In this document: positions 12,179-39,877 of the stretch, one piece after another | Layout of the letters: each line of letters opens with the position of its first letter | Numbering within the stretch: position 1 is the first letter of the stretch | DNA from: Candidatus Levyibacteriota bacterium | GTDB lineage: Bacteria > Patescibacteriota > Microgenomatia > Levybacterales > UBA12049 | DNA length: 64,000 nucleotides | NCBI GenBank assembly: GCA_016214555.1 | Contig: JACROF010000012.1 | Location: 70,066 to 134,065, forward strand | Direction: 5' to 3' | The notes under the pieces: model-generated | Databases searched by the model: none | What the model saw: the letters and a program-made list of their open reading frames with translations, nothing else | What the model was told of the DNA's origin: nothing | Translations under genes and position numbers: made by a program

Positions 12179-12195
12179 TTTCTCTGAATTAAGAC

Positions 12196-12233: not shown

Positions 12234-12243
12234 AAATAATATT

Positions 12244-12717: not shown

Positions 12718-12737
12718 TATCCATATACTCATAACAG

Positions 12738-13691
12738 ATGCGTATTCGTGAGTCAGTTCCTCTTTCTGAGATTGTTTATTACCATATCGGTGGAATAGCC
12801 CGATTCGTGATTGAGGTTTATAACCTTGAAGAAATTAGAGAAGCAATTAATTTTCTCAGATCCCACCACGAGGTTAAGATTTATATACTAGGACTTGGGT
12901 CAAACACGCTTTTTCCTGATGATTGCTCAACACTAGGTGTCATCTGGTTAAGAGAATCAGGAGCTATTTCATTTCAAGATGAGAGCATCACTGCTTTTGC
13001 AGGAGAGAGTTTGGACTCGATTATTACATTTTCGCTCAATAATAAACAAGTCGGCCTTGAATGGGCTGGAGGATTACCTAGCACTATCGGTGGTGCAGTA
13101 AGGGGAAATGCAGGAGCATTTGGTTCGGAGATAAAAAACAATGTTATCAGCGTTGATGCAATTGACATGTCTGATTCAAAGCTATTGCTAAAGTCTTACT
13201 CCAAAGATGAATGCGGATTTTCTTACAGGAACAGCTATTTCAAGCAGAATTCTAATCTTTTGATTACCTCAGTAGTTCTTGCCACCAAGAATGCAGATGA
13301 AATTGTGTTAAAAAATGCTAAAAATACTTATCTGAAAAATATTGATTATCGAGCTAATAATCATCCTATAGAATATCCATCGTGTGGATCTGTTTTTAAA
13401 AATATTGTTAAAAAGGAAGAGGTGGAAAAAATTATATCTGTATGGACTGACGTCAAAAGCTTATCAGAAAGCAGGTGGCATAACAAAATATCCATGGGTT
13501 ATGTTATCAATCGTTTAGGTTTTTCTGGGAAAAAAGTTGGAGATGCTATGATTTCACCAAAGCACACAAATTATATTGTGAATTTAGGTCATGCAACAGC
13601 TCAAGATGTTAGAATCCTTATAGACCAAGTTAGGGAGAGTTTTTACCATGTTTTTGGATTTTATCCTGAACCAGAAGTCATCATTTTATAG
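12738..13691 (+). CDS. murB: UDP-N-acetylenolpyruvoylglucosamine reductase MurB
   Basis: 317 aa. YHIGGIARF and LGLGSNTLF FAD-binding motifs, and a C-terminal MurB domain. Confidence 0.85.
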   Translation: MRIRESVPLSEIVYYHIGGIARFVIEVYNLEEIREAINFLRSHHEVKIYILGLGSNTLFPDDCSTLGVIWLRESGAISFQDESITAFAGESLDSIITFSLNNKQVGLEWAGGLPSTIGGAVRGNAGAFGSEIKNNVISVDAIDMSDSKLLLKSYSKDECGFSYRNSYFKQNSNLLITSVVLATKNADEIVLKNAKNTYLKNIDYRANNHPIEYPSCGSVFKNIVKKEEVEKIISVWTDVKSLSESRWHNKISMGYVINRLGFSGKKVGDAMISPKHTNYIVNLGHATAQDVRILIDQVRESFYHVFGFYPEPEVIIL

Positions 13692-23756: not shown

Positions 23757-24143
23757 CTATACGGACTTACTGGTGAAAAATAGTTCAAGAGTTAAGAGAA
23801 TGCCAACAAGAAGAATAATAAAGAGTGGATGAGTAAGGTGGAGTACACGAAACAAAAGATAGCAAAGAAGAAAAAGAGCAAAAAATATGCCATGCTTTTT
23901 GCTCTTTAGAAAATATGTTGGAAGAGAATAGCCAGCGATAAGAAGTGGAAGAGGCACTATCCAAAGTGCAGGAATTGAAAAAAAGAAAAAAGTAATCTTG
24001 TCATAAGGCGAGATGGTTATCAGAAAGAAAATGAGCAGGAGAAGAAAGATAATTCCAACAATGAGGTAAAAAATATTTCTTTTTCTCCTTCTCATAGTTG
24101 AAGCATAGAGCTTTTTTCTTACCCACGCAACGCCTCTTGACAA
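23757..24143 (-). CDS. small membrane protein, unknown function
   Basis: 128 aa, 3-4 hydrophobic helices, divergent from hrcA. No motif. Confidence 0.4.
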   Translation of the reverse strand: MSRGVAWVRKKLYASTMRRRKRNIFYLIVGIIFLLLLIFFLITISPYDKITFFFFSIPALWIVPLPLLIAGYSLPTYFLKSKKHGIFFALFLLCYLLFRVLHLTHPLFIILLVGILLTLELFFTSKSV

Positions 24144-24165
24144 AAAATAGCACTCTTGGTATTAT
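24136..24165 (+). promoter_or_regulatory. sigma70-type promoter of hrcA operon (TTGACA -18- TATTAT)
   Basis: ttgaca at 24136-24141 and tattat at 24160-24165. The -10 lies inside the CIRCE spacer, the classic arrangement for HrcA-repressed promoters. Confidence 0.45.
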
Positions 24166-24173
24166 AGTGCTAA
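24147..24173. promoter_or_regulatory. CIRCE inverted-repeat operator (HrcA binding site)
   Basis: aTAGCACTC-ttggtatta-TAGTGCTAA versus consensus TTAGCACTC-N9-GAGTGCTAA: 9-bp arms, 9-nt spacer, one mismatch per arm. Located 10 nt upstream of hrcA. Confidence 0.65.
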
Positions 24174-24182: not shown

Positions 24183-24917
24183 ATGCATAACTTGACTCAG
24201 AGACAGATTGAGATTCTCAAAGCAATTATTGAGGATTATATCGAGACAGCAGAGCCAGTTGGTTCTGAGACCCTTGAAAAGAAATACAGCCTAAGTGCTT
24301 CTCCTGCAACGATTCGAAACGAGATGGTTAGACTTTCTGAATTTGGATATCTCAAAAAACCGCATTCGTCAGCAGGACGTGTCCCAACGCCTGAAGGAAT
24401 GAAGTTTTATGTCTCACAGCTCATGAGAGAGAAAGTGCTTTCGACAGTTGAGGAGGTAGCTCTAAAGGAGAAGGTTTGGGACTATCGCGAGAGAATGCAG
24501 CGTTTCCTTAAGGAAGCAACACGATCTCTTGCTGACAAAACAGGTGCTTTAGCTGTGGCAACTTCCCAAGATGGCGATGTCTTTATTTCGGGATATTCAA
24601 ATATTTTGGAGATGCCTGAATTTTTTGACATTGACATTACGAAGACTCTTCTTTCAGCTATTGATGAGTCAGAATATTTATTTAACCTTTGTCAGAAAAT
24701 GACCCAGGAAGGTGATGAGATCAATATACTGATGGGAGAGGATTTAGGTTCACGACTTCAGGGCCCTTATAGTTTTGTTTATACTCATTATGAGACTCCT
24801 ATGCATGGCGCAGGAGAGATTGGAGTAATTGGGCCGGTTCGCTTGAATTATACAGTCGTTGTGCCTACAGTGAGGTATTTTGGAGATCTTATTGAATCAA
24901 TTGCAAAAGGTTGGTAA
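24183..24917 (+). CDS. hrcA: heat-inducible transcription repressor HrcA (short form)
   Basis: 244 aa. N-terminal winged-helix with ILKAIIEDYIETAEPVGSETL...SPATIRNEM, typical of HrcA. CIRCE element upstream. Confidence 0.85.
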   Translation: MHNLTQRQIEILKAIIEDYIETAEPVGSETLEKKYSLSASPATIRNEMVRLSEFGYLKKPHSSAGRVPTPEGMKFYVSQLMREKVLSTVEEVALKEKVWDYRERMQRFLKEATRSLADKTGALAVATSQDGDVFISGYSNILEMPEFFDIDITKTLLSAIDESEYLFNLCQKMTQEGDEINILMGEDLGSRLQGPYSFVYTHYETPMHGAGEIGVIGPVRLNYTVVVPTVRYFGDLIESIAKGW

Positions 24918-24922
24918 AAATT

Positions 24923-25402
24923 ATGTCAGATGGAAAAAGAAATAAGAAACAAGAACAGACAGTTGTAGACAAGTCAGAAGAAGTTGAAGTGATTGAAGGT
25001 CATGCCTTAGAGTGGGAGAATAAGTACAAAAGAGTGCTTGCTGACTATCAGAACCTTGAAAAAAGAGTACGAGATGAAAGATTGGAATTAGTACGATCTT
25101 CAAATAAGGAATTGCTCTTGAAATTTTTGCCTATTTTAGATACAGTATTATTAGCAAAGCAGCACGAGCAAAATCAAAATCTTACAATTATTGAGGATCA
25201 GTTCTTTAGTATTCTCAAACTGGAAGGAGTGATAAAAATTGCTACGGTCGGAGAGCATTTCGACCCCTCAACAATGGAAGTTGTTACATTAACGCAGGGA
25301 CAAGAAGGAATTGTTATACAGGAGGTACGCCCAGGCTATCTGCTATATGATAAATTGCTGCGTCCAGCACAAGTTATAGTAGGCAACGAGGACAAAAAAT
25401 AA
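24923..25402 (+). CDS. grpE: nucleotide exchange factor GrpE
   Basis: Coiled-coil N-terminal region then a C-terminal beta domain. Sits between hrcA and dnaK. ATG at 24923 preferred over the TTG at 24911. Confidence 0.85.
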   Translation: MSDGKRNKKQEQTVVDKSEEVEVIEGHALEWENKYKRVLADYQNLEKRVRDERLELVRSSNKELLLKFLPILDTVLLAKQHEQNQNLTIIEDQFFSILKLEGVIKIATVGEHFDPSTMEVVTLTQGQEGIVIQEVRPGYLLYDKLLRPAQVIVGNEDKK

Positions 25403-25484
25403 AAGTTTAAAGTGTAAAGATAAAAATTAAGATGTATGTTTTTAACTTTTCATTTTTAACTTTTTCTGAGATAGAAAGGAATAT

Positions 25485-27386
25485 ATGGGAAAAATAATTG
25501 GAATTGATTTAGGTACAACAAATTCATGCGTAGCGGTTATGGAAGGTGGCTCACCAAAGGTGATCCATTCTGCGGAAGGCCGCAATGTCATCCCTTCTGT
25601 TGTTGATCCCAAAGCACATGTTGTTGGTGATATCGCAAAGCGTCAAATGGTTTTGAAGCCAAAAGAAACAATTTTTTCTGTCAAGAGATTGATGGGAAAG
25701 AAGTTCAAAGACTCCTCTGTTGCAAATGATATGAAATGGCTTCCATATGCCGTAAAAGCCGGAAGAGATGATATGGCTGTTGTTGAAGTCGATGGTAAAT
25801 CTTATACTCCGCAGGAGATTTCAGCAATGATTTTACAGAAAATAAAATCAGATGCAGAAGCATACCTTGGAGATAAGGTAACTGAGGCAGTTATTACTGT
25901 ACCTGCTTATTTTGACGATAGTCAGCGCCAGGCTACAAAGCAGGCAGGAGAGATTGCTGGTCTTGAGGTAAAACGCATTATCAACGAGCCAACAGCAGCA
26001 GCGCTCGCATATGGATTAGATAAGAAAAATGCACATACTATTGCGGTCTACGATCTAGGTGGAGGAACATTTGATATTTCTATTTTGGAGCTTGGGGATG
26101 GTGTCTATGAGGTAAAATCAACTAATGGAGACACTCATCTTGGAGGAGATGATTTTGATCAGGTAATTATTACTTATTTGGCCGAGGAATTCAAAAAAGA
26201 AAATGCTATCGATTTGAAAAAAGACCCCCAGGCACTTCAGAGATTGAAGGAATCAGCCGAAAAAGCAAAAATAGAACTTTCATCTGCTCAGGAGGCGCAG
26301 ATCAATCAGCCATTTATCACTCAAGGACCAAATGGCCCTCTTCATTTGACGATGACTCTTACAAGAGCAAAGCTTGAGCAGCTCGTCGATGATCTTGTTC
26401 AAAAGACGCTTAAACCCGTTGAGCAGGCAATTAAAGATGCGGGTATAAAAAAGAATGAAGTTGACGAGGTTGTTATGGTTGGTGGAATGACTCGCATGCC
26501 GAAAATTGTCGAAACAGTCTCAAAATTCTTTGAAAAAGAACCAAATAAATCAGTAAATCCTGATGAAGTAGTAGCAATTGGTGCTGCTGTACAGGGAGGC
26601 GTTCTTTCAGGAGATGTTAAGGATGTGCTCCTTCTTGATGTAACTCCTTTGACGCTTGGCATTGAGACAATGGGCTCAGTTTCAACCCCTCTTATAGCAA
26701 GAAATACCACCATTCCTACATCAAAATCTCAAGTATTTTCAACCGCTGCAGATAATCAGACACAGGTAGAGATTAACGTTTTGCAAGGAGAGCGACCTAT
26801 GGCCGCAGACAATAAGTCACTTGGTCGATTTATTCTGGATGGTATTCCTCCAGCTCCTCGTGGTATGCCACAAGTTGAGGTAACATTTGATATTGATGCA
26901 AATGGCATTTTGAATGTCAAAGCTAAAGATAAAGCTACTGGAAAAGAGCAAAGTATTAAGATTACCGGTTCAACTGGGCTTTCAAAAGAGGAAGTTGAGA
27001 GAATGACTAAAGAGGCTGAGCTTCATGCTAAAGAGGATGAAGAGAAGAAAGCGCAGGTTGAAACAAGAAATCAGGCAGACTCTCTTATTTTTACCGCCGA
27101 AAAATCTCTCAAGGATGCAGGGGATAAAGTAAGCGATGATATTAAAAAAGAAGTAGAAGAAAAGATAAAAGCACTTAAAGACATCTTGGATAGTGGATCA
27201 AAGGAGGAACTTGAGACAAAGACTAAAGAGCTTTCAGATCATCTTCAAAAAATTGGTGAAGCTATGTATAAGGATCAAGTTGCATCCACTGAAGCAAATT
27301 CACCAGTGGCAAGCTCAGAGGAGAAGAAAGATGCAAAGGATAGTAATGAGCCTGTTGAAGGTGAGGTAGTCGATGGCCGAAACTAA
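25485..27386 (+). CDS. dnaK: molecular chaperone DnaK (Hsp70)
   Basis: 633 aa. [22 protein letters not shown] and VGGMTRMP Hsp70 signatures. Acidic C-terminal tail. Confidence 0.95.
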
Positions 27387-27810
27387 ACCAGAATTTGTCC
27401 AAGCTCCCTTTCGTATTGTTGAACCTCCCTCAATTGAGGATCCACTCCCTACTGCTGTTCCACCATCTGCTGATATTTTAGCGGGTAGGGTTTTTAGTTC
27501 AGAAGATCAGGCACGATTGACAGAGTTAGAAGAAAAAGTTGAAAGATTATCAAATCAAGGTCAGCCAACAATTGATATTCAGAACGAGATTGCTAGAATA
27601 CGTGGTATAGAGATGCCTTCCATAAAAAGAAAAGAGGGGCCGTTTTTAGAGGATATTATGTCCAGAGAACAAATCGAAGAAAATTTGAGAAATAACCTTC
27701 CTGCTAGTTTTAGCCCACCCCATATAAGAACTGGTCAAGAGGCTAGAGGAGATAGGAGTCCGACATGGAGAGGTCCAAGGCAAAGAGCTGTTTCAAAAAG
27801 AACAAAGTAA
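27373..27810 (+). CDS. hypothetical protein encoded between dnaK and dnaJ (likely disordered, Pro/Arg/Glu-rich)
   Basis: 145 aa ORF filling a 440-nt dnaK-dnaJ gap and overlapping the dnaK stop by 14 nt. No recognisable domain. Compositionally biased. Confidence 0.4.
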
Positions 27811-27826
27811 TATTGCATGAATTACT

Positions 27827-28705
27827 ATGGCACAAGATTATTATTCATTATTAGGAGTTTCTAAATCTTCAAGTGCAGATGAGATTAAAAAAGCCTATCG
27901 TAAATTAGCGCTTCAGTACCACCCCGATCGTAATAAGACTAAAGAGGGGGAGGAAAAATTTAAGGAAATAACCAAAGCCTACGAAGTCCTTTCAGACCCG
28001 CAAAAAAGACAGACCTACGATCAGTACGGATCAGCAGCTTTTGAACAGGGAGGGCCAGGGGCAGGAGGCCCGTTTGGTGGAGGTTTTGGTGGATTTAATC
28101 AGCAAGGTCCTTTTAGTTATACATATTCCAGCAATGGTCAAGGATTTGATTTTGGGGGATTCTCAGATCCATTTGAAATATTTGAACAATTTTTTGGTGG
28201 TGCATCGCCTTTTGGAAGAGGAGAAAGAAGGCAGGTTTATTCTTTGTCGATTAGCTTTATGGAGGCTGTGAAGGGCGCTGAGAAAGAAGTAGAGATAGAC
28301 AAGAAAAAACAAAAAATAAAGATTCCTCCAGGTGTTGATACGGGAACAAGAATGAGGTTTGAAGGTTTTGATATTGTATTTGAAGTAAAGCAAGATAAAA
28401 GATTTCATCGTGAAGGCTCAGATATTATCACTGAGGAAACAATATCTTTTCCTCAAGCAGTTCTTGGTAGCGAGATAAAGGTTGAAACAGTTGAAGGAGA
28501 GGTTACCATCAAGATTCCAGCGGGAACACAGCCTGAGACATTGATACGACTTCGAGAAAAAGGAATCCAAAGACTCCGAAGTTCAAGCAAGGGTGATCAT
28601 TATGTGCGAATTAAGATAGATATCCCTAAAAACATTTCAAAAAAGCAGAGAGAAATTCTTGAGGCTTTTGATTCGGATTCGCAAAATAAAAAGAACTGGT
28701 TTTAG
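27827..28705 (+). CDS. dnaJ: DnaJ-like co-chaperone, type II (J domain + G/F-rich region + C-terminal substrate-binding domains, no zinc finger)
   Basis: 292 aa. J domain with HPD ([13 protein letters not shown]). Gly/Phe-rich linker. No CxxCxGxG repeats. C-terminal DnaJ_C-like region. Confidence 0.8.
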
Positions 28706-28796
28706 CGCATTTTCTGCACAAAGATTTATTTGTAATTTCTATACCAAATTCGTATACTTGAAATACGTGGCGCCTTAGAATTGGTGCTTTATTTCT

Positions 28797-29180
28797 ATGA
28801 AAATTGTCTCTGCTCGACAATGGATTCAAAAATTATCTTATTCGTTATTTTTTGTGGATGTTGCGTATGCTGCCGATCCAGCTTCCTCTTGTGATTCTTC
28901 AGCTGTTATGACACAGCTTGGGTGTCTACCGAAAGATCCTGTACTCTTTGTTAGTAGTTTTTATGGTATTGGACTGAGTATGGTTGGTGGAGTAGCTCTT
29001 CTCTTTATCATTATTGGAGGTTACACAATTCTTACTTCTCGAGGGAATCCAAGTCAAATTAACGCAGGAAAAAGTTATATTTTTTACTCGATTGCTGGCC
29101 TTATTCTTGCAATATTTGGCTATCTCTTTATAGAGATATTTTTGGTTGATCTTCTTCATATACCTGGTCTTGGACACTAA
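28797..29180 (+). CDS. small secreted two-TM protein, VirB2/TrbC pilin-like (hypothesis)
   Basis: 127 aa. Signal peptide ending AYA-ADP. Mature ~100 aa with two hydrophobic helices separated by a short polar loop (TSRGNPSQINAGKS). Size and topology resemble TrbC/VirB2 T-pilin subunits. Stop is 2 nt before the next gene. Confidence 0.5.
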   Translation: MKIVSARQWIQKLSYSLFFVDVAYAADPASSCDSSAVMTQLGCLPKDPVLFVSSFYGIGLSMVGGVALLFIIIGGYTILTSRGNPSQINAGKSYIFYSIAGLILAIFGYLFIEIFLVDLLHIPGLGH

Positions 29181-29181
29181 A

Positions 29182-32100
29182 ATGAAAAAATATTTTTTGT
29201 TCTGCCTTCTTTTTATCGTAGGACTTTTTTTATTTACCACCTCTCAGCAAGCGTATGCTGTTTCGATAGATAGCAAAACTCTTATTGCGGCAGATGCATT
29301 ACCCCAGGATGGATCGTGGATTATTGATCCTGAGGTGACTAGAATCGGCAAAAACGCATCACGATCAGGGCAGTTATTGGATTGGACACTCAAGGATTAC
29401 CAATGGTCAACTGCAGCATCGCAGCAAAGTAGCGATAATCCTCTTGCATCATTTTGGATCATTATTCAGAGAATTGTTTATGCCTTGTTTTTAGTTGTAA
29501 TTCTTATAACGTCATTTATTCTCATTGTAACTAGAGGGAAAAGTCTGTCTGCTAAAAGATTTCTTCCGAGGTTTTTACTCGCAGTAATTCTTGTGACTTT
29601 TTCTTTTTCACTTATTCAATTTATTTATCAATTTGTTGATATTTTACAAGGATTTTTTCTTAACAATTCTCGTGGGCAAATTATTTCATCAAAAGATCTT
29701 TTATTTATAGGCTTTCAGTACACAGACTTTGAAGGACTTCGTCGATTCGGTTCGTCATTTGACGAGTCTGCATTTATGTCGTTGATCCTTGTTAAATTTA
29801 CTGCATTTACTTATTATGTTATGGCTCTTCTCCTTATTTTTAGAAAGATTCTTCTTTGGTTTTTTATAGTTCTCTCTCCCCTTTTCCCAATACTGCTCTT
29901 GTTCTATCCAATGAGGAATACGGGAAAGGTTTGGATCGGTGAGTTTTTTAGATGGGTACTTTACGCACCTCTTTTTGCTATTTTCTTATCGGGCCTTGTA
30001 AGATTGTGGGATTCTCCTTCAGGACTTCCTCTCCTTTTTAATTTTACTGGAGTAAAGCAGGGGGATATGGTATATCCGACTGCGGTAAATATTTTACTTG
30101 GTGGACCTGGGCAAAAAATCGGATTGAACAATAGCGTTAATCTTCCTGATACATTTGCACTTTATGTAGTGTCTCTTATCATGTTGTGGGCAGTTATTAT
30201 TCTGCCATTTATTCTTCTCCAGATTTTTTTAGATCACATGATGGCGTATAATTATCAAAATAATCCTATAACAAAACAAATTACTAATCTTATGGCTTCA
30301 AGGCTTGCGCCGCCCTCAAAGCCACTTGGTCCTCCTCCATCTTCTAATCAACCAGCAGGTCTTGCAAGAAATATTCCCTTTGGTAGGCATTTTGAGGTTC
30401 CATCGTCTGTTGGTGATGCTAAGGAGATTCCAAGAAGTTTTGCACAGCAAAATAAGTCTCAGACAGTAGTGAAGAAAAATGTTGTTACAAAATCCGTAGT
30501 GAATAATCTAGCCAATCTTTCAATTCCAACGATGAGGGATATTGCCAGATATGAAATAGAGAAAAGATCTCATGACACTTCTCGAATTGCAGAAATTGAA
30601 AGAACGAAAAAAACTCTTATTCAGATAGCAAGTCCGACAACTCTTTCTATTTCTAGTGAGCGAGAAAGATATCAGGCTATCAGGGAAAGGTTAAGACTTG
30701 CTTCTCAGAAAGGTGATACTGTTGCCACAAATATACTCCAGGCTGCAAATACATATAATTACTATTCTTCGCAAGACACTTCTTCGACCACGATTAATCA
30801 AGGAGTTAAAAATCTTGCTAATCCAGAGAGAATCCTTTCTACAGTGGAAAAAGAAAAAGTCGAAAAAATAAAAGAGAGAATTATTCAGAATGCTCTTGAG
30901 GGTAACCCTATTGCTAAACAAGTTGCTGCAGGCCTAAGTCAGTTCTCCTCAAGCCAACTTGCAGTTCTCAAACAAATACTTCAGGCATTATCGTCATCAG
31001 CTCTAAATCAGAACTCTTCTAATCAATATGAGTCGCTTCGCGAGCGTCTCGTAACCGCAAGCAATTCTGGGAATACAGTTGCAACTACGTTTATTTCTAC
31101 AATTGAAAAGTCATCTTCTGAGCAAGATGTTAAGAGTTTATTTGAGGCGTTAATTAAAGCTGAAAAAGAAGGAAATCCAATAGCAAAAGAGGTTATGAGC
31201 TCTGTTGATAAAAATGTCTCACAGGTATCCACAGAGAATTTAAAGCAGGTGATTAAAGAAGCTAAAGATAAAAAAGATCCATTAGGGGTAATGATTTTTG
31301 AGATGATGCAAGAATCATCAGTCAAAGAACAAAAAGTTCCCGCCTCAGCGGCAACGAAATTAAAAAGCGGCACTTTTCCTGTTGTTAATAGGATTCAAGA
31401 AGTATCTTTTGATGATTACGAAGCTGTGAAGAAAATGTGGAGGGAAAATTATAAAAATTTGAAGTCTGCTGGATTTAATGGTGATAGTAGAAGAGATGAG
31501 ATCAATAATGATATTTCACATATGCAAGAAACGATTAGCTTACTTTCTTCAGGGAATCAAGAGATGATCGAACAAGGAATGAGACAGGTATCTGATATTC
31601 TGCCATTTCTATTAATTGGAGGATTCTCTCAGACTGAAATTATTACCTATCTTAAGGCAAAATTGGAGGCTGCAAAGTCTACACTTGAAGACTTAACAGC
31701 GAAAGACGATGAAGAAGACACGCTTCTTGCTGCTGAAAAAGCTGTTAAGCACACCTCAAAAACTATGACGATGAGTGCTGAGGCGCCTATTTCTGCAAAG
31801 CAGGTTATTCCTCAAGAGGTTTCAACGGGGTCTGTGCATACGACTCTACTGTCTCCTCCTTTGGCTAGTGGGGCAACATCAATTTTTAATATAGTCAACC
31901 TCCCAATAGTTACCTTGCGAGATATTGTAAGAATTGACCAGAAAAGAGAGACAACAACAGACCAGAAGAGTGAAATCACTATTCTTAAGCAAAATCTTCT
32001 CAATATTGGACATCCTGAGAGGGTAACTTCAGTAGACGAGCGTGAAAAATATAAAACATTGCACACTCAGCTGGTTGAGGAGGATAAGAAAGGAAATCCT

Positions 32101-33150
32101 TCAGCAAAGATTATTATCAATGCAATTAGTGAGCTTGACAACCAAACGTCTGATAGCGAAATTGATAACGCAAATAAGTTTATTTCACTTCTTGGGCAGC
32201 AAATGATTCCAGGTGATAAAAATGAGGATAGGGAAAATGAGATTTCACAATTGATTTTGAGAGAAAGTGCTTCAAATCCTCTAGCTGAATCTCTTCGTGT
32301 GGCTTCACAGCAGTGGTATAACCTTCAGAAAGAAAAAACTAAAGATTTTCTTGAGAAAATTAGCAATCCTTCTCTCCTACCAACAGCCGCTGAGCAGATG
32401 CAGTATACGAAGCTAATGGATAGGATTTCTTTGGCAAGCTCAAACGGAAACAGCGTTGCATCATATGTAGTTAAAGCAATCCGTGAAAAAGATATAGATC
32501 ACGAAATACCTCAAATATATGTAAAAATTGCTGAAGGAGAAAGGAATGGAGATGAGCTTTCAACATATCTCATGAGAACTATCTATAACACAGCCTCACA
32601 TGATACTAAGATAGACGCTGAGTCTATTTTCCAAAAGACAGTATCACAGGGGAGAGATGGCGATCTCTTTGCTTCAAAACTCTTAAAAGAGATTGCAAAA
32701 ATCGCCAAACAATTAGGTAAAAAGACAACGCCTGTCACCTCTTTGCCTCATGCAAATCGAATACAGACTGTTACTCTTGATGATTATGAAGAGGTAAAAA
32801 GAATGTGGGAGGAGAATTATGCATCATTTCTTCTAGATTCTTCAAAATCTTCTGATGAGAAAAAGAGAATAATAGAAAAGGATGTTAATTCATTAACTCT
32901 AGCCATAAACTTGCTTTCATCAACTGATTCTGAGCAGATGAGAAGAGGAATGGATATGGTAAGCGATTTGTTGCCTTTTCTTCTCTTGGGAGGATTTAGT
33001 CAGCCTGAAATTATCGGGTATCTAAAGGCAAAACGTACTGCTGCAGAGTCTGTTTTTAAAAGTGAAAATAGCTTGAATGAGGAATTGGTTAGTAGAAATA
33101 AAAGACAGGAAAATCCAATACAACAGAAAGTTCAAGTCGTCGATGAATGA
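29182..33150 (+). CDS. giant (1322 aa) secreted polytopic membrane protein: N-terminal VirB6/TrbL-like multi-TM domain plus long modular repeat-containing hydrophilic C-terminal region
   Basis: ATG at 29182 (the track's 29146 is TTG). Signal peptide MKKYFLFCLLFIVGLFLFTTSQQAYA, then ~6 TM helices within the first ~370 aa. About 950 aa of hydrophilic sequence follow, with several repeated module types (see repeat features). Confidence 0.8.
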   Translation: MKKYFLFCLLFIVGLFLFTTSQQAYAVSIDSKTLIAADALPQDGSWIIDPEVTRIGKNASRSGQLLDWTLKDYQWSTAASQQSSDNPLASFWIIIQRIVYALFLVVILITSFILIVTRGKSLSAKRFLPRFLLAVILVTFSFSLIQFIYQFVDILQGFFLNNSRGQIISSKDLLFIGFQYTDFEGLRRFGSSFDESAFMSLILVKFTAFTYYVMALLLIFRKILLWFFIVLSPLFPILLLFYPMRNTGKVWIGEFFRWVLYAPLFAIFLSGLVRLWDSPSGLPLLFNFTGVKQGDMVYPTAVNILLGGPGQKIGLNNSVNLPDTFALYVVSLIMLWAVIILPFILLQIFLDHMMAYNYQNNPITKQITNLMASRLAPPSKPLGPPPSSNQPAGLARNIPFGRHFEVPSSVGDAKEIPRSFAQQNKSQTVVKKNVVTKSVVNNLANLSIPTMRDIARYEIEKRSHDTSRIAEIERTKKTLIQIASPTTLSISSERERYQAIRERLRLASQKGDTVATNILQAANTYNYYSSQDTSSTTINQGVKNLANPERILSTVEKEKVEKIKERIIQNALEGNPIAKQVAAGLSQFSSSQLAVLKQILQALSSSALNQNSSNQYESLRERLVTASNSGNTVATTFISTIEKSSSEQDVKSLFEALIKAEKEGNPIAKEVMSSVDKNVSQVSTENLKQVIKEAKDKKDPLGVMIFEMMQESSVKEQKVPASAATKLKSGTFPVVNRIQEVSFDDYEAVKKMWRENYKNLKSAGFNGDSRRDEINNDISHMQETISLLSSGNQEMIEQGMRQVSDILPFLLIGGFSQTEIITYLKAKLEAAKSTLEDLTAKDDEEDTLLAAEKAVKHTSKTMTMSAEAPISAKQVIPQEVSTGSVHTTLLSPPLASGATSIFNIVNLPIVTLRDIVRIDQKRETTTDQKSEITILKQNLLNIGHPERVTSVDEREKYKTLHTQLVEEDKKGNPSAKIIINAISELDNQTSDSEIDNANKFISLLGQQMIPGDKNEDRENEISQLILRESASNPLAESLRVASQQWYNLQKEKTKDFLEKISNPSLLPTAAEQMQYTKLMDRISLASSNGNSVASYVVKAIREKDIDHEIPQIYVKIAEGERNGDELSTYLMRTIYNTASHDTKIDAESIFQKTVSQGRDGDLFASKLLKEIAKIAKQLGKKTTPVTSLPHANRIQTVTLDDYEEVKRMWEENYASFLLDSSKSSDEKKRIIEKDVNSLTLAINLLSSTDSEQMRRGMDMVSDLLPFLLLGGFSQPEIIGYLKAKRTAAESVFKSENSLNEELVSRNKRQENPIQQKVQVVDE
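31381..31695 (+). repeat. intragenic ~105-aa repeat module copy A (RIQEVSFDDYEAVKKMW...LPFLLIGGFSQTEIITYLKAKLEAAKS)
   Basis: Protein-level duplication within the 1322-aa ORF. Copy A is ~40-45% identical to copy B, including DDYE.VK.MW.ENY, LPFLL.GGFSQ.EII.YLKAK and AA.S. Nucleotide level is diverged. Confidence 0.6.
32745..33070 (+). repeat. intragenic ~105-aa repeat module copy B (RIQTVTLDDYEEVKRMW...LPFLLLGGFSQPEIIGYLKAKRTAAES)
   Basis: Paralogous to copy A at 31381-31695. Conserved hydrophobic patch LPFLLxGGFSQ and basic YLKAK motif. Confidence 0.6.
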
Positions 33151-33193
33151 TAAAATACTTGCTCTTTTTTGAAGTATTGTATTAAATAAAAGT

Positions 33194-35866
33194 ATGCTTG
33201 GAAATTTATTTAGTTCTCATAAAGATCCTAAAGAGGAGTTGGTCTCGCCTCAAGAGCAAAATCCAGCAGATACAAGTACTGCTGCTAATACATTGACACA
33301 CATAGAGTCACGAATGGATCCAACGCTTAGGCAAAATGTCTCAGCGCTATCCCATCTTGATTCTCGTACTACGCAAGTTCTTCATCACGCTCAAGAAGAG
33401 ACAAGGCGCATTAAGCAAGCTCAAATACAGCCTGAACAAGTATTGCTAGGACTACTATACGATGAGGAAGTTTTTAAGCTACTTGAAGGTTTTGATGTTG
33501 ATGTTGCAAAGCTTGCCCAGGAAATTCAGAGTAAAGAAGAAGTAGGAAGTTTCCAAGAGCAGCCGATGTTGAGTAGCGCAAGTACTCAGCTATTTGAGCA
33601 GGCATATAGAGACGCAAAAACCAGAAACGCCAGCTTTGTTTCACCAGAGGATCTTTTGGTTGAGATTTGCAATTTATCTATTGATTCCGTAAAGCTCCTA
33701 GTGGAAAAGGGAGTTACTAAACAACATATTTTGGACAAATTATCGTCGTCTACAGAATACACCACGGGTAAAAAATCAGTTCTTGAACAATTCGCCATAG
33801 ATCTCACTGCTGAAGCAAAAGCAGGGAAATTGGATCCAATCGCAGGAAGAGATAGGGAAATTGACAGACTTGTTCACATTTTACTTCGAAGGACAAAAAA
33901 CAACCCAATAATTATTGGTGAAGCTGGAGTCGGTAAAACAGCGATTGTTGAAGGACTTGCACAGGAAATTGTTGCAGGAAGTATACCATCTGACCTTAAA
34001 AACAAAAAAATTTATCAGCTTGATCTTGCATCGCTTGTAGCTGGCGCTAGCCATAGAGGAGAGTTTGAGGAGCGACTAAAAGGGATAATCAATGAAACAA
34101 TTGCGTCACAAGGTCAAATAATCCTTTTTATTGATGAAATACATACCCTCATTGGGGCAGGTGACACTGACGGCGCTTTGGATGCTTCAAACATAATAAA
34201 GCCCCATTTAGCAAGAGGTCATATGCAGATTATTGGAACAACTACCACAGTTGAGTATAGAAAGCATTTTGAGAAAGATAAGGCTTTCGAGCGACGTTTT
34301 CAACCAATCCTTGCTGATGAACCATCTGAAGAGGCTGCTGTTGAAATGCTGAAAGTGTTAAGGCCAAAATATGAGAAATATCATGGTGTGACAATCCCTG
34401 ATGATACTTTGGTAGATGCCGTTAAGTTATCAAAAAAATATATTGGAGAAAGATATCTTCCTGATAAAGCAGTTGATCTTATCGATGAAGCTTCAGCAGA
34501 TGTAAAGCTTGGACGAATTTCTTTTAAGCAGGATGTAAAGGAATCGGGAGAAAACTCAAATGACACACCGCCTCGTTCACAGGCAACAACGGGTAATGAG
34601 GTGGTAAAGTCAGATATTGAGAGAGTTGTGAGCAATTGGACTGGTATTCCAGTTACAAAATTGACTGAAGACGAGAGTCAGAAGCTTCTTAAGCTTGAGG
34701 ATAATATTCATAAAAGACTTATCGACCAGCAAGAAGCAGTCGTTGCGGTATCTGAGGCTGTACGGAGAGGGAGAATTGGGTTAGCTCCGGCAAATAGGCC
34801 AATTGCATCATTTATATTTCTCGGTCCAACAGGCGTTGGCAAAACAGAATTAGCAAAAACGCTTGCCGAGTTACTTTTTGGGCGTGATGATGCTCTTGTG
34901 AGGCTTGATATGAGTGAATATATGGAAAAGCATGAGGTAGCTAAGTTGATTGGGGCTCCTCCAGGATACGTTGGTTATGAAGAAGGAGGTCAGTTGACAG
35001 AGGCGGTTCGGGCAAAGCCATACTCAATAGTTCTACTTGATGAGGTAGAAAAAGCACATCCTGATGTTTTTAATATTCTTTTACAGCTTTTGGAAGATGG
35101 TCGATTAACAGACAATAAAGGTAATACTATTTCGTTCAAAAATACTATTGTTATAGCTACCTCCAATATTGGAAGTTCGCTTATTCAGCAACAGCTTAGT
35201 GAAAAAGGAGAGCCACAATCGCAGGAAGCTTTTACTAAAGAGTTTAGTGATTTGACAACGCTTGTAACAGCAGAGTTAAGAAAGTTTTTTAAGCCAGAAC
35301 TTCTTAACCGATTTGATGACGTGGTGATGTTTAAGCCTTTGAGAAAAGCAGATATGACGCAGATTGCAAAGCTTGGTATCGGAAAAACAGCAAAATTGCT
35401 TGAAGAGCAGGGGTATCATGTTCAGACAACGGATGCTGCGATTGCGCAGCTTGCGCAGGAAGGATACGATCCTGTATATGGAGCAAGGCCGCTTAGAAGG
35501 CTTATCCAGTCATCTATCGAAAATCGAGTAGCTCTTATGATCATAGGGAAGGAATTTATGCCTGGAGATACTATTGTGATTGATTATAACTCGACAAAAG
35601 GAGGTTTTAATTTCTCAAAAGGCGGTGGTCAGAGTGTAGTTGGTCCAGAAAAAAACATCGATAATCGAGACAATAATACTCAACCTCTTGATATGGTTGA
35701 AAAATCTCATCTTCCTGAGTCAGGAACAGGGGAAGCTCAGGCGTTACCTAAGGAGCCTGAGTACGCGCAGCCCAGCTTCAATCCTCCATTCTTGAGTAAT
35801 CAAAATAACAACGTCAATGGTGAGACTTTTGTAAAGAACGAAATCACTTCTGCCTCAAGCAATTAA
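33194..35866 (+). CDS. Hsp100/Clp-family double-AAA+ ATPase (ClpC/ClpA-like architecture, no ClpB M-domain, no recognisable ClpP-docking IGF/IGL loop), Q/N-rich C-terminal tail
   Basis: 890 aa. Two Clp_N repeats. NBD1 Walker A GEAGVGKT and Walker B ILFIDEIH. Only ~45 aa between NBD1 and NBD2. NBD2 Walker A GPTGVGKT, Walker [11 protein letters not shown], sensor ATSNIG and GARPLRR. No G-F/G-L tripeptide after the sensor-1 region. Confidence 0.85.
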
Positions 35867-35937
35867 TAAATACCCTCTAAGGCTGTAAAAGATGCTGGTT
35901 TGAACTTTATTTTATATTCAAGGTATACTAAGTATGT

Positions 35938-36267
35938 ATGTCTGCCCTGTTTTTCTACCCATTTTACGTATTGAGATTTTGGTATGGTGAAGGTCCTGTT
36001 GTTGTACTCAAGCATTTCTATATTTTTAATCGTGTATTTCTTGATTTTTTTTCTGTAAAAATTCTTCTAAAAACCTTTTTTCTTCCTGTAAAAAATGAAT
36101 ATCGCGATGGTTTGGTCGGATTTTCCATTGGAATTGGGATTTTTATGAAAAGCTGTTTACTTATCATTGCAGCATTTTTATTTATGATACTTCTTGTTTT
36201 TGAAGTGGTGATTTTTGGAGGATATATGGCATTTCCTTTGATTACAGTAGGATTGTTGTTGTGGTAA
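35938..36267 (+). CDS. small polytopic membrane protein, unknown function
   Basis: 109 aa, 3 hydrophobic helices. Stop overlaps the start of the following membrane-anchored Clp-like gene, suggesting translational coupling. Confidence 0.4.
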   Translation: MSALFFYPFYVLRFWYGEGPVVVLKHFYIFNRVFLDFFSVKILLKTFFLPVKNEYRDGLVGFSIGIGIFMKSCLLIIAAFLFMILLVFEVVIFGGYMAFPLITVGLLLW

Positions 36268-36269
36268 TT

Positions 36270-38669
36270 ATGGATAGACAACTCGTATCAATATATTTGT
36301 TTTATAGAAGTATAGAAGTAAAATTTATAAGAGTTGCTCTTCCAGTGATTCTTCTGATGTGGATTCCCCTTGTGCTTATTACTAACGAATCCCCTAATGT
36401 TCCCATTGTTATTTTTAATCTTTATCTTATGGGAGAACTTTTTTATCGGTATAAGATTTGTACATTAAGAACAAAAAATACCCTTCTGGATCAGGAAGAT
36501 CCTTATAAGAGTATGTCTTTAGAGGTAGCTTCAGTATTTCAAAATGCTTCATCAACAAAGGAAATATTAAGACGCTTGTTTAGTCATCAACAGGTCATTT
36601 TTGGGTTACAAAGAATGGGTGCTTCTCCGCGAGATGTAGTGAGTATTGAATACGAAGCCAACGTGTTGCTGCTAAGAGCGTCTGAGCTCGCTAAAAAAAT
36701 ACAGGGAACAAAGATTACTCTTATAGATGTGCTCAATTCTTATCTGATTGTCTCAGATGAGAAGACAAATTTCCTTTTACATAAGCGATTAAAAGAGAAT
36801 GACTTGCTGCAGATTTCTGTCTGGGTTAGGAAGATCTATCAATTTGAGGAAAAACCAAGGGAGCTATTTTTTGCAAATTACGGAGGAGGATTGGGGCAAT
36901 GGCTTGTGTCTGGGTGGACCTTGGAAACTAAAAAGTATACACAAGTTTTTCCTCAGAAGGATCTTAATCTTGATGTTTCTATTATTGGCAGAGAAAAAGA
37001 ATATCAGTTATTACAAGAAAGCTTATTAAAACCTGAAAGAAATAATATTCTAATTGTTGGAAAAACAGGGGTAGGCAAAGAGCAGCTGCTTAGAAGGCTG
37101 GCAGAGGATAGTTTTAGTGGAAAACTTGATAAGAATCTTTCATATAAAACAATTCTTGAAGTACTCGTTGGATCACTTGTCGCTGGAGCAAATCAACAAG
37201 GCGATCTTCAGGAGCGTTTAAAAGAAATCATTGAGGAGGTTAGCCATGCAGGCAATGTTATTCTTTATATTCCTGAATTCCAGAACCTTCTTGGCGGGAC
37301 CAGCTTTTCACTTGATCTTTCTGGGGCATTAATGCCATTCCTTCGTGATGGAAAGCTTCCGATTATCGCAAGTGTCACTGACGAAAATTTTAAAAGATAT
37401 ATACAAGGTAAACCTATCTCTGAAATGTTTTCTGATATTCATCTTACGGCTCCCAGTAGTAATCAGGCTGAGCAGATGATAATGGAAAAGATCGTGGAGC
37501 TTGAAAGAAAACATGCAGTAATAATTACTTATCCTGCTGTCAAGACATCGGTGATGTTTGCACAAAAATATTCTGATAGTTCTGAGTTACCAGGAAGTGC
37601 AATTGATCTACTGTCTGATGCAATGAGTAAAAAAGCTTCTGAAGATATTCATGATGCACATAATAAGTTTCGTTTAGTTACTGAGAAAGATATTATTCAT
37701 ACAGTTGAACAGCGAACAAGTATTGCGTTGGATGATCCAACAGAAGAAGAGAGTTCAAGGCTACTTCATCTAGAATCTATTATGCATGAGCGGATCATAG
37801 GTCAAGATCAGGCTATTAAAGCTATTGCAGAATCTCTTCGAAGACTCAGAACAGGGGTTCAGAGTCTAGATAGACCTACCTCCTTTTTGTTCCTGGGCCC
37901 AACAGGTGTTGGTAAAACTGAAGTAGCAAAAGTATTATCAAATATTTATTTTAATGGTGAAGCGAATATGATCCGTCTTGACATGAGCGAGTATGCATCA
38001 ACCGATGGTATTGAGAGATTAATAGGAGCATCTACCAGACAAAACGATCTGAGAGGTGAGTTGACTGAGAAAATCCATGATCATCCAAATTCCCTTGTCC
38101 TTCTTGACGAATTTGAGAAAGCTCATTCGTCGGTGGCAAATCTCTTCCTTCAGATTCTTGATGATGGTAGATTGACCGATGGGAGAGGTAATACTGTTTC
38201 TTTCAGTAACGCGATTATTATCGCAACATCGAATGCTGGAGCAAATTTTATTCACGATGCGATAGAAAAAAATGTATTTCTTGATAGCTCGTTTCAGAAG
38301 CAATTGAGAAGCTTTCTTCAGGCAAATAATATATTCAAGCCAGAATTACTCAACCGCTTTGATGATATTGTTGTTTTTCGGCCACTCTTAAAGGATGATG
38401 TTAGGAAAGTAACAGAAATTTTGTTAAGAGATCTTATAAGTCACATGAAAGAAAAAGACATAACACTCTCCGTTGAGGATATTGCAGTGTCTAAAATAAT
38501 ATCAGAAGGTTATGATAAAGAATATGGAGCAAGACCAATTCGGAGATATATCCAAGACAATCTTGATGATCTTATTGCGAAAGAAATCCTTAATAAATCA
38601 ATTAATAGAGGAGATAGGGTAAGAATTGGCGTCAATCAAATAAATGAGTTTGTTATTTATCGAATTTAG
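36270..38669 (+). CDS. membrane-anchored Hsp100/Clp-like ATPase with degenerate (catalytically dead) first AAA+ domain and intact second AAA+ domain
   Basis: ATG at 36270 (GTG at 36261 in the track). Two N-terminal TM helices, then a Clp_N-like repeat pair. NBD1 Walker A reads VGKTGVGKEQL (canonical T/S replaced by E), Walker B reads ILYIPEF (D replaced by P), and the Arg finger is lost. NBD2 is canonical ([36 protein letters not shown]). Confidence 0.8.
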   Translation: MDRQLVSIYLFYRSIEVKFIRVALPVILLMWIPLVLITNESPNVPIVIFNLYLMGELFYRYKICTLRTKNTLLDQEDPYKSMSLEVASVFQNASSTKEILRRLFSHQQVIFGLQRMGASPRDVVSIEYEANVLLLRASELAKKIQGTKITLIDVLNSYLIVSDEKTNFLLHKRLKENDLLQISVWVRKIYQFEEKPRELFFANYGGGLGQWLVSGWTLETKKYTQVFPQKDLNLDVSIIGREKEYQLLQESLLKPERNNILIVGKTGVGKEQLLRRLAEDSFSGKLDKNLSYKTILEVLVGSLVAGANQQGDLQERLKEIIEEVSHAGNVILYIPEFQNLLGGTSFSLDLSGALMPFLRDGKLPIIASVTDENFKRYIQGKPISEMFSDIHLTAPSSNQAEQMIMEKIVELERKHAVIITYPAVKTSVMFAQKYSDSSELPGSAIDLLSDAMSKKASEDIHDAHNKFRLVTEKDIIHTVEQRTSIALDDPTEEESSRLLHLESIMHERIIGQDQAIKAIAESLRRLRTGVQSLDRPTSFLFLGPTGVGKTEVAKVLSNIYFNGEANMIRLDMSEYASTDGIERLIGASTRQNDLRGELTEKIHDHPNSLVLLDEFEKAHSSVANLFLQILDDGRLTDGRGNTVSFSNAIIIATSNAGANFIHDAIEKNVFLDSSFQKQLRSFLQANNIFKPELLNRFDDIVVFRPLLKDDVRKVTEILLRDLISHMKEKDITLSVEDIAVSKIISEGYDKEYGARPIRRYIQDNLDDLIAKEILNKSINRGDRVRIGVNQINEFVIYRI

Positions 38670-38722
38670 GCAGGTAATTCTTGACAAAGCATCTTTAGGC
38701 TCTTAACCTAAAGATATCTACA

Positions 38723-39877
38723 ATGAAAAAGAGAGCATACAAAAGGAAGCATGTTGTTTTAAAGACAAAACGACATAAAAAATTTCACCATAAAGTTATA
38801 TCTTTTTTTAGGGGAGATGGCGGAATTTATGTAATTTTTATTCTTGCTACCGCAATGGCTGGAGCATTTGCCTTAACAGGTGGTATTCTTCCTCAGCTTA
38901 ATCCTACTCCACCTGCATCAAGCCAAGTTGATATAGATACCGAGTCAGCAAAGCAAAGCAGCGAGAATGCTTTGCAGCTTGTTGACATAAAGCCAAAACC
39001 GACCGAGGTGCCTACGCCTACCAGTGAAATTACTCCCAGTACCTCGCCTAGTATCTCTCCTAGCATCTCGCAGCCTCCTCCTGTTCAGGAATGTTATAAC
39101 AAGACGTTAGTGACTTTGATACTTGATTATTCAAATTCAATGCTAACACCAAATTCAAGTCCAAAATATACTGCTTTAAATTCTGCGCTTGGATCTTTCT
39201 ATACACAATTGAGTGGTTATGCTAATGCTGGCATCGGAGCTCAAGCATTTACTGGAAAAGATTCTGGGAATACACCGCTAGATGGTGTATTTAACCTGTT
39301 GAATTACAAATTAGTAAAGAATGTTTCATCTTCAGATAAGCAAAAAATTACTCAAGTAGATAAAGCTGTTTTAGAAAATAGTAATGGTGGAGGAACCTAC
39401 ATGAGAAATGGGTTTTCCTATACTATTTCCAAATTAGAATCAGCTCCCTCTTCTTTTGCAGGATATAGAAAAGTTGCCATAATTTTTTCTGATGGTATTC
39501 CTGAGGAGACATGGGAAGATAGAGAATCCCACAACGGGGATGCAAATTCTTCTTCAGTTTGCTTAGGGAGTGGTAGATATCAGCAGAGATGTTTTTCAAT
39601 TTATCAAGACCCACGAGTAAATTCAACAAACAGATTACCTGATCTAGTAAAGGGACTAAAAGATATAACAGATAGTGTATACGTCGTTGGTATTTATGAT
39701 AGCAAAAGTGGTGAAGGGCTAGTTTTTAAAGATAATTTGATTAGCCTGTTACAGACGATTGCAGAGAGGAGCACGACCCCATTCTATCAATTTATAGACT
39801 TAAAAGATGATCCAGCGGCGGCATTGCAAAAATTAAATCCAGCTTTTCAAAATATTTTTAAAGACGTTTGTAAGTAA
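38723..39877 (+). CDS. membrane-anchored von Willebrand factor type A (vWA) domain protein with MIDAS motif
   Basis: 384 aa. Highly basic N-terminus (KKRAYKRKHVVLKTKRHKK), one TM helix, a P/S/T-rich linker, then a vWA domain with LILDYSNSM (DxSxS MIDAS) and later AIIFSDGIPEE. Confidence 0.7.
   Translation: MKKRAYKRKHVVLKTKRHKKFHHKVISFFRGDGGIYVIFILATAMAGAFALTGGILPQLNPTPPASSQVDIDTESAKQSSENALQLVDIKPKPTEVPTPTSEITPSTSPSISPSISQPPPVQECYNKTLVTLILDYSNSMLTPNSSPKYTALNSALGSFYTQLSGYANAGIGAQAFTGKDSGNTPLDGVFNLLNYKLVKNVSSSDKQKITQVDKAVLENSNGGGTYMRNGFSYTISKLESAPSSFAGYRKVAIIFSDGIPEETWEDRESHNGDANSSSVCLGSGRYQQRCFSIYQDPRVNSTNRLPDLVKGLKDITDSVYVVGIYDSKSGEGLVFKDNLISLLQTIAERSTTPFYQFIDLKDDPAAALQKLNPAFQNIFKDVCK

Follow-up and report, generated by a model that had tools for sequence, protein, structure and literature searches.

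A pilin, a VirB6-like giant protein and a specialised Hsp100 encoded side by side at the dnaK operon of Levybacteria: a candidate membrane machine

The 64-kb stretch of DNA analysed here (the window) is part of the low-GC core genome of a member of Candidatus Levybacteria, ultra-small bacteria of the Patescibacteria or Candidate Phyla Radiation, and contains a block of six co-directional genes between the dnaK-dnaJ heat-shock operon and nusA. Three of these genes, encoding a VirB2/TrbC-like pilin, a 1322-amino acid (aa) protein with a VirB6/TrbL-like membrane domain (GIANT) and a soluble two-ring Hsp100 (Clp1), probably represent a previously undescribed membrane machine. Tentatively, and with a somewhat less than even chance of being right, we propose that they form a functional trio of the Levybacteria in which Clp1 would perform ATP-driven work at the VirB6-like platform, with the small membrane protein SML and the membrane-anchored Hsp100 paralogue Clp2 being a separate unit and the last gene, which codes for a von Willebrand factor A (vWA) protein in the window, filling a variable position. 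The block is made up of three separable things, namely the pilin-GIANT-Clp1 trio, the SML-Clp2 pair and a variable exoprotein slot.

The six open reading frames (ORFs) code for proteins of 127, 1322, 890, 109, 802 and 384 aa and are spaced by 1, 43, 71, -7 and 53 nt, with the one overlap, of 7 nt, being located between the genes for SML and Clp2. An initial annotation of the window had described this tight, co-directional arrangement as well as its core-genome setting, and both descriptions proved accurate, as the block is flanked by housekeeping genes and the scanned ORFs of the window included neither an integrase nor a transposase. The assumption made there that all six genes build one machine was not supported, since the vWA gene is detectable in only about six of 80 loci, SML-Clp2 is self-contained and solely pilin, GIANT and Clp1 act as a unit.

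When one genome per species (GTDB) was scanned, 142 loci with a GIANT relative were obtained, 80 of which were kept. All lineage-level names among them are Levybacteria, Microgenomates or Patescibacteria; about half of the loci are labelled 'uncultured Gammaproteobacteria', and for a few the name is a different one that was probably assigned in error. Linkage of the three genes is strong across the Levybacteria species: a pilin gene lies at most two genes 5′ of GIANT in 67 of 71 loci, Clp1 follows at most two genes 3′ of GIANT in 65 of 68, and dnaK is found upstream of the trio in 48 of 54. Of the two arrangements observed, 43 loci show the one with the trio past dnaJ and 16 the one with the trio flanked by dnaK and dnaJ. 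The flanking genes (metG, a 128-aa ORF and hrcA on one side, nusA and infB on the other) are equally syntenic in Levybacteria, and the rearranged loci are therefore the informative ones. In three loci (L014, L027, and L073) the trio is contiguous without a dnaK operon upstream. It is also contiguous in L050, but separated from dnaJ by about 6 kb of other genes, and L054 has the same neighbouring genes. In L088, GIANT is encoded directly 5′ of a more divergent Clp1 (53% identity) with the same His pore loop and no M-domain.

The pilin contains two transmembrane (TM) helices arranged as a hairpin, two conserved Cys residues that form a pair and, at its C-terminus, the motif [IV]PGF. The Pfam family T4SS_pilin (PF18895; T4SS, type IV secretion system) is matched by 44 of 46 orthologues, the best with an E-value of 2.5e-8, and by the window copy with an E-value of 2e-5 and 25 bits, which is slightly below the cut-off of 26.6. 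The earlier description as a VirB2/TrbC-like mini-protein with two TM segments is supported, and a pilin of this type is one of the T4SS components present at the locus. Being only 1 nt apart, the genes for pilin and GIANT appear to be translationally coupled. In one species (L082:~2800-13000) four pilin paralogues are arrayed 5′ of GIANT, with Clp1 encoded 5′ of the array, an arrangement that echoes the VirB2 arrays reported for Microgenomatia (PMC12102498). In some species a further protein, rich in Cys and ending in a T4SS_pilin domain (33.9 bits; e.g., L003:4122-5384, minus strand), is also encoded 5′ of hrcA.

The GIANT ORF spans positions 29182-33150 when read from its ATG; an alternative TTG at 29146 would give 1334 aa, but as homologues begin at MKK, position 29182 was taken as the start. 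The protein is 100% identical to the hypothetical protein HZC02_03695 of a Candidatus Levybacteria metagenome-assembled genome, and GIANT-type proteins of related loci range from 700 to 2,150 aa. The N-terminal domain comprises a signal peptide, hydrophobic helices within aa 98-350 and extracellular segments, the latter bearing paired Cys residues in roughly half of the family. An AlphaFold2 (AF2) model of aa 1-430 (pLDDT 80, pTM 0.71) contains five long helices, and a Foldseek search of the PDB with the N-domain model returned chains of the R388 TrwI/VirB6 stalk at ranks 1-4 and 6, with 8rt9_F as best match (probability 1.00, E 0.011, target TM-score 0.50). In absolute terms these matches are weak (E about 0.01, TM-scores 0.34-0.50). 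Pfam TrbL/VirB6 is matched by 11 of 28 family members (best E-value 1.6e-5), and the locus can be considered to encode a polytopic platform protein of the VirB6/TrbL type. In Microgenomatia, VirB6 homologues were described as 'scarce', with extreme divergence being suggested, whereas VirB4 and pilin arrays are common (PMC12102498); GIANT proteins are strong candidates for the 'missing' VirB6 of Levybacteria.

The remainder of GIANT consists of two copies of a module of about 450 aa; the pairing of a VirB6/TrbL-like N-domain with a repeat region, as put forward in the initial annotation, is borne out on both counts. Each module is composed of helical repeats of the type ANP...GN.LA..IL and a highly conserved terminal sub-domain (ILPFLLIGGFS at the end of module 1), and the PFLLxGGFS motif that closes this sub-domain was found in GIANT proteins only. 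Relatives contain one to three copies of the module motif, the longest members perhaps more. The internal repeat was not reported by a self-BLAST of the C-terminal region but was revealed by the family alignment and the motif positions, and neither profile nor fold searches detected a relative of it outside GIANT and the long Clp1 proteins described below. We infer that the C-terminal tail is cytoplasmic because its repeats are shared with Clp1, which has no signal peptide or TM segment. A cytoplasmic tail is also backed by the distribution of Cys residues, the pairs occurring nowhere but in the N-terminal region and in loop 2 and the repeats being nearly Cys-free (3 Cys in 27,432 residues), by the K/R-rich linker past the last TM helix and by the five long helices of the model, which match VirB6 with its N-out, C-in topology. 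That GIANT is an ordinary repeat-bearing surface protein, an outcome that would have deflated the earlier proposal, is unlikely given the same repeats on the cytosolic Clp1 of 17 species.

Clp1 contains the Pfam domains Clp_N, AAA, AAA_lid_9, AAA_2 and ClpB_D2-small, followed by a disordered C-terminal tail. Like ClpA, ClpB, and ClpC it combines Clp_N with two intact AAA+ rings, as Walker A/B, sensor and Arg-finger motifs are preserved in both nucleotide-binding domains (NBDs). Its best sequence match in the PDB is Staphylococcus aureus ClpC, and ClpC proteins are its nearest solved relatives. Unlike these proteins, Clp1 has no M-domain: its match to the ClpB model is split, ClpC residues 416-463 have no counterpart, and ClpB alignments (model and PDB) lack about 60-120 residues between query residues 451 and 462. 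A ClpP loop ([VA]GF or [ILVA]G[FL]) is likewise absent from NBD2, where S. aureus ClpC has AGF and where the sequence is variable across the 68 orthologues. The annotation of Clp1 as a soluble Hsp100 devoid of both features was thus correct. A further difference is seen in the NBD1 pore loop, in which the window copy has His in place of Tyr, as do 56 of the 68 orthologues; the NBD2 loop is the canonical GYVGY. Clp1 scores below every NCBIfam equivalog cut-off, including those for ClpB, ClpA and TssH. Three identities were considered and rejected: the ClpB of a DnaK bichaperone system, given the missing M-domain and a TIGR03346 score of 908 bits vs. a cut-off of 1232; a ClpP-coupled ClpA or ClpC, given the missing ClpP-binding loop; and the ClpV (TssH) of a type VI secretion system, given a TIGR03345 score of 691.6 vs. 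884.95 bits and the absence of type VI secretion genes from the window.

The most direct connection between Clp1 and GIANT is provided by long Clp1 proteins of 1,125-1,513 aa, found in 17 species with GIANT repeats at the C-terminus. In 17 of 18 distinct proteins the extension past NBD2 is significantly similar to the helical repeats of GIANT (E-values down to 6e-13). When compared with 1,242 ORFs from the loci, the extensions matched only GIANT and other long Clp1 proteins, and a control against 200 shuffled GIANT C-regions gave a minimum E-value of 0.29. Together with the rearranged but contiguous loci and the specialisation of Clp1, the shared repeats count for a coupling of Clp1 and GIANT.

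In the mechanism we envisage, the membrane domain of GIANT would serve as a pilin-binding assembly platform and its long cytoplasmic tail as an array of repeated helical docking modules. Clp1 would be recruited to the cytoplasmic face of this platform via the helical repeats common to both and would supply ATP-driven pulling, be it for extracting, levering or recycling pilin subunits, a job done by VirB4/VirB11 in classical systems. As an outcome, a surface filament or stalk may be made or remodelled at a locus without neighbouring VirB4, and read-through from the promoter of the dnaK operon may link expression of the trio to that of the operon. From the comparative data we infer the contact between Clp1 and GIANT, the direction of the mechanical work and the co-transcription.

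The locus resembles the T4SS of Patescibacteria, for which an MPF-FATA-like VirB4 clade with VirB2-like pilins was described (Quinonero-Coronel et al., 2025, PMC12102498), in having a PF18895 pilin, a VirB6/TrbL-like polytopic protein, a chromosomal core-genome position, no relaxase nearby and a pilin gene paired with a non-pilin gene. In the few Patescibacteria that have been cultivated, the epibiotic lifestyle requires T4SS-like pilins and VirB6 (PMC12102498). The locus differs from the T4SS of Patescibacteria in being located at the dnaK operon and not near dnaA, in the size (700-2,150 aa) and repeated modules of its VirB6-like protein, in having a Clp ATPase as conserved partner and in that no VirB4, VirD4, VirB3 or TrsD was found in the 64-kb window or the related loci sampled; the cited study makes no mention of dnaK, Clp or chaperones. 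A protein of the VirB4/CagE/DUF87 type, the signature ATPase of T4SS, was present neither among the window ORFs scanned nor among 10 large unassigned ORFs of rearranged related loci. The latter, inspected as possible T4SS ATPases, turned out to be histidine kinase, PKD, TPR, Big_7 and glycosyltransferase proteins, among others. A relaxase was likewise not found in the window. PADLOC detected no anti-phage defence system; it reported generic matches to the Clp NBD2 only (DolB, PDC-M37B) and none for pilin, GIANT, SML or the vWA protein.

Extended VirB6 proteins with a large extra domain reportedly include TcpH of pCW3 and ConG of ICEBs1. A VirB6-like polytopic N-domain joined to a large extra domain is also found in RvhB6 of the Rickettsiales (PMC2653234). 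GIANT is distinguished from the known extended VirB6 proteins by its modules, which are a lineage-specific all-helical repeat that is also fused to an Hsp100. In the R388 system (PDB 8rt9, 7o3v), VirB2 embedded in the membrane is recruited by VirB6, which serves as the foundation of the growing pilus, and extraction of VirB2 from the membrane requires the cytoplasmic ATPases VirB4/VirB11 (PMC9259494). Its TrwI/VirB6 stalk is the closest, if weak, structural match of the GIANT N-domain; unlike in R388, no VirB5, VirB3, VirB4 or VirB8 partner is encoded at the GIANT locus. A precedent for an Hsp100 without ClpP that is dedicated to a membrane complex is PTEX, the protein export translocon of Plasmodium, in which HSP101 is docked on the EXP2 pore (PMC7355975, PMC6550532) and whose structures 6e10/6e11 are among the PDB matches of Clp1. 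PTEX is eukaryotic and its pore and adaptor proteins are unrelated, which makes this an analogy only. Regarding its components, the locus draws on known superfamilies (VirB2, VirB6, Hsp100, vWA), but it is not a complete T4SS, ClpB, ClpC/ClpA, ClpV or MoxR-vWA system. In agreement with the initial annotation, which could assign it to no named system, the searchable literature yielded no description of an extended VirB6 with these modules, of a Clp2-SML family, of a GIANT partnered with an Hsp100 lacking M-domain and ClpP loop and sometimes bearing the same repeats, or of the placement of such a trio in or behind the dnaK operon.

The pair located 3′ of the trio shows a different distribution. 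SML, with the motif P..F.R.W..E.P ... TFF.P.KNEYR.G.V, is encoded directly 5′ of Clp2 in 37 of 41 loci, and Clp2 is found 3′ of the trio in 40 of 58 loci. The pair is not adjacent to the trio in L089, L027 and L073. In Woykebacteria-type genomes and others it is found, overlapping in the same way and with equally degenerate motifs, where no pilin, GIANT, Clp1 or dnaK is nearby. On these comparative grounds SML-Clp2 is a separate two-gene unit that in Levybacteria happens to neighbour the trio. Clp2 has one clearly scored TM segment at its N-terminus and a second hydrophobic stretch that is visible in the alignment. NBD1 is degenerate across the family (Walker A GxGKE, Walker B YIPxFQ, no Arg fingers), which agrees with its earlier description as a membrane-anchored Hsp100 paralogue with a dead NBD1. 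NBD2 is intact including its own Arg finger, and its pore loop is GAxPGEGxERGE in the Levybacteria, with GAPPG[TS]G.. at this place in proteins that are more distantly related. As the gripping pore-loop Tyr is missing in both rings, Clp2 is unlikely to be an unfoldase, and to speak of a membrane-tethered AAA+ unfoldase pair overstated the case, given that Clp1 is soluble and Clp2 has no Tyr needed for threading. As a putatively membrane-bound, ATP-hydrolysing and non-threading enzyme, Clp2 recalls the logic of Torsin with LAP1/LULL1 (PMC5425593), where a membrane-associated AAA+ protein related to Clp/Hsp100 and lacking aromatic pore loops likewise acts with a membrane-protein partner; Clp2 also weakly matches the Torsin Pfam family (E=5e-4). 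Unlike Torsin, Clp2 has two rings, one of them dead, and its own NBD2 Arg finger, and unlike LAP1/LULL1, SML is a tiny polytopic protein without a degenerate AAA+ fold. The N-terminal region of Clp2 is represented by just 67 clusters among 1.84 billion representatives and hence marks a narrow family. With Clp2 and SML, a small family of Hsp100 paralogues is defined that had no name before, its members being anchored in the membrane, devoid of pore-loop Tyr and each paired with a tiny membrane protein. Among all loci a T4SS-type ATPase was encountered just once, as a DUF87/TrwB_AAD_bind protein resembling type IV coupling proteins or HerA that is encoded about 6 kb from SML-Clp2 in a non-Levybacteria genome (L087:18596-21223, minus strand).

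Regarding the last gene, the annotation as a membrane vWA protein with a metal ion-dependent adhesion site (MIDAS) stands as far as the TM anchor and the DYSNS motif are concerned, but the Pfam VWA match of the window copy is weak (17.4 bits, below cut-off); the orthologue of L001 passes VWA_2 with 33.8 vs. 27 bits. The gene was detectable in about six of 80 species loci, plus L001, and holds the last position in the subclade of the window. In many other species the gene past Clp1/Clp2 codes for an S8 subtilase, whose prodomain is of the fervidolysin type, for an M4 thermolysin or for an M64-like peptidase, and elsewhere the position is empty. We take this last position to be variable and to accommodate surface enzymes or adhesins that are exported via Sec, and the vWA protein is not a conserved member. 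A MoxR-vWA pair was rejected, as the ATPases are of the Clp/Hsp100 class and the vWA gene is confined to the few loci mentioned. In at least 19 Levybacteria loci a membrane-anchored exoprotease is encoded directly 3′ of Clp1 (e.g., L055:14725-16479, L045:14912-16510, and L053:15529-17811). Exoproteases of all three catalytic classes (S8, M4, M64-like) share a tail of about 25 aa with four Cys residues (C-x2-3-DP-x-C-x7-9-[IL]Q[LIV]C-x-[LF]-x-C), which looks like a shared C-terminal tag or mini-domain.

Upstream of the block lie metG, the 128-aa membrane ORF and the heat-shock operon hrcA-grpE-dnaK-(145-aa ORF)-dnaJ; nusA, infB, rpsO, pnp and others follow downstream (Table 1). The best promoter-like site of the region (24137-24165) lies in front of hrcA and overlaps a CIRCE element (controlling inverted repeat of chaperone expression; 24147-24173), the only one in the window, which has 2 mismatches to the consensus and no match in 100 shuffles. 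CIRCE is present 5′ of hrcA in 41 of 58 related loci and 5′ of pilin, GIANT or Clp1 genes in none. As a test for intrinsic heat-shock control, the translocated trios were also inspected, and no CIRCE was found beside them. A terminator scan detected no strong terminator between the dnaJ operon and the pilin gene, with a weak 6-bp hairpin at 28769-28788 as sole candidate, and all terminator-like hairpins are weak until past the vWA gene; read-through from the HrcA-controlled promoter across the block is thus plausible.

Table 1. Features of the six-gene block and of the preceding heat-shock operon (positions in the window).
Feature	Position	Strand	Basis
Promoter-like site TTGACA-17-TATTAT overlapping CIRCE operator ATAGCACTC-N9-TAGTGCTAA, upstream of hrcA	24137..24173	+	
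hrcA-grpE-dnaK-(145-aa ORF)-dnaJ heat-shock operon	24183..28705	+	Pfam; directly 5′ of pilin gene, co-directional
Pilin (PIL), VirB2/TrbC-like T4SS pilin, 127 aa	28797..29180	+	TM prediction, Pfam, orthologues
GIANT N-domain (aa 1-375), VirB6/TrbL fold	29182..30306	+	AF2, Foldseek, Pfam, Cys/charge distribution
GIANT module 1 (aa ~440-890)	30499..31851	+	Family alignment, motif positions, model (all-helical, pLDDT 81)
GIANT module 2 (aa ~891-1322), second copy of module 1 type	31852..33150	+	Family alignment, motif positions
Clp1, soluble two-ring Hsp100, 890 aa	33194..35866	+	Pfam, NCBIfam, PDB sequence alignments, 68 orthologues
SML, small membrane protein, 109 aa	35938..36267	+	ORF, TM prediction, related loci
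Clp2, membrane-anchored Hsp100 paralogue, 802 aa	36261..38669	+	Pfam, NCBIfam, TM prediction, family alignment
vWA protein, membrane-anchored, DYSNS MIDAS-type motif, 384 aa	38723..39877	+	ORF, Pfam, TM prediction

No tRNA or Rfam matches were found in the window. Further observations concern its other genes. The 145-aa ORF between dnaK and dnaJ (27373-27810, plus strand) overlaps the dnaK stop codon, has no Pfam match and has no homologue in 84 related loci; in other species the dnaK-dnaJ slot is occupied by genes for PHP-domain proteins, by different genes or by the complete pilin-GIANT-Clp1 trio. The 128-aa protein with four TM segments (23757-24143, minus strand) is encoded divergently 5′ of hrcA in nearly all Levybacteria loci. 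A sortase gene (55191-55925, minus strand) overlaps the end of a gene for a 769-aa protein (55918-58227, minus strand) that has a weak Baseplate_J-like match only, and the 769-aa protein may be a surface substrate of the sortase. Finally, a 375-aa AAA+ protein (46445-47572, plus strand) has a Lon-type lid domain without a protease domain.

Several observations weigh against the proposed work of Clp1 at a GIANT platform. Much of the linkage signal could be inherited gene order, with the informative rearranged loci numbering about 6-8, and some loci depart from the arrangement: in L082, which has no dnaK, Clp1 is encoded about 7 kb upstream and not adjacent to GIANT, and in L013 and L071 GIANT is followed by two S8 proteases, without pilin or Clp1. 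A position beside dnaK is what a plain heat-shock chaperone would also look like. VirB4 is widespread in Patescibacteria including Microgenomatia (PMC12102498), and the pilin and VirB6-like pair may serve a VirB4 machine. A cytoplasmic Hsp100 that threads its substrate would pull pilin inward and not push it out. The model of the GIANT module gave no informative fold match, and the case for coupling is a comparative one. A somewhat unlikely explanation that builds on such points regards the genes as neighbours by descent: Clp1 would be the heat-shock Hsp100 of the lineage, a ClpB/ClpC descendant in the HrcA regulon, pilin and GIANT would be VirB2 and VirB6 of a VirB4-dependent T4SS encoded elsewhere, and the super-operon order would have been kept in compact genomes. 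It fits the CIRCE/HrcA promoter being the only strong regulatory signal, the absence of strong terminators, the equal synteny of the flanking housekeeping genes, the scarcity of VirB6 in Microgenomatia that commonly have VirB4 and pilin arrays (PMC12102498), and the fact that a trio separated from dnaK never has CIRCE. It is at odds with trios that stay contiguous without the dnaK operon (L014, L027, and L073) or apart from it (L050/L054), with GIANT directly preceding a divergent Clp1 in L088, with the GIANT-specific repeats on Clp1 in 17 species and with a Clp1 that has lost the M-domain, the site of ClpB-DnaK cooperation, and altered its NBD1 pore loop.

Quite unlikely in our view is a proteostasis cassette, in which Clp1 would be a dedicated quality-control extractor or disaggregase for aggregation-prone GIANT and pilin, and Clp2-SML would care for membrane proteins, so that the block would serve stress repair and not act as a motor. 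The location of the trio in or behind the dnaK operon, the canonical threading loop of Clp1 NBD2, the co-encoded extracytoplasmic proteases and the shared repeats, which could be a recognition tag, are all compatible with this; translocated trios, however, have no CIRCE, Clp1 has no ClpP loop to pass substrates on to degradation, and a conserved Hsp100 devoted to one client would be unusual. That all six genes build a single machine for secretion or of the envelope, in which two membrane-tethered unfoldases would be joined by a MIDAS adhesin, is very improbable. This reading would account for the tight, co-directional spacing in the window, for the same six-gene order in the closest relatives (L001, L005, L006, L007, and L022) and for the frequent position of Clp2 3′ of the trio, but most loci have proteases in place of the vWA gene, SML-Clp2 stands alone in other Microgenomatia and away from the trio in the three loci named above, and Clp2 is not expected to unfold proteins. 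A bolder and unlikely version of the trio proposal would be a VirB4-independent, T4SS-derived envelope machine, in which a Clp1 hexamer docked via the shared repeats on the cytoplasmic modules of a pentameric extended VirB6 powers growth or retraction of a VirB2-type filament, or unfolds polypeptides and feeds them across the membrane.

Taken together, GIANT is consistently partnered at its locus with a specialised Clp ATPase and not with VirB4. Should Clp1 and GIANT be coupled physically, Hsp100 motors would for the first time be tied to platforms for pili or secretion of the type IV kind. If, beyond this, the VirB4-independent machine exists, an Hsp100 on a VirB6 would amount to a bacterial equivalent of the Plasmodium PTEX and a new way to energise a type IV-like apparatus in ultra-small episymbionts.

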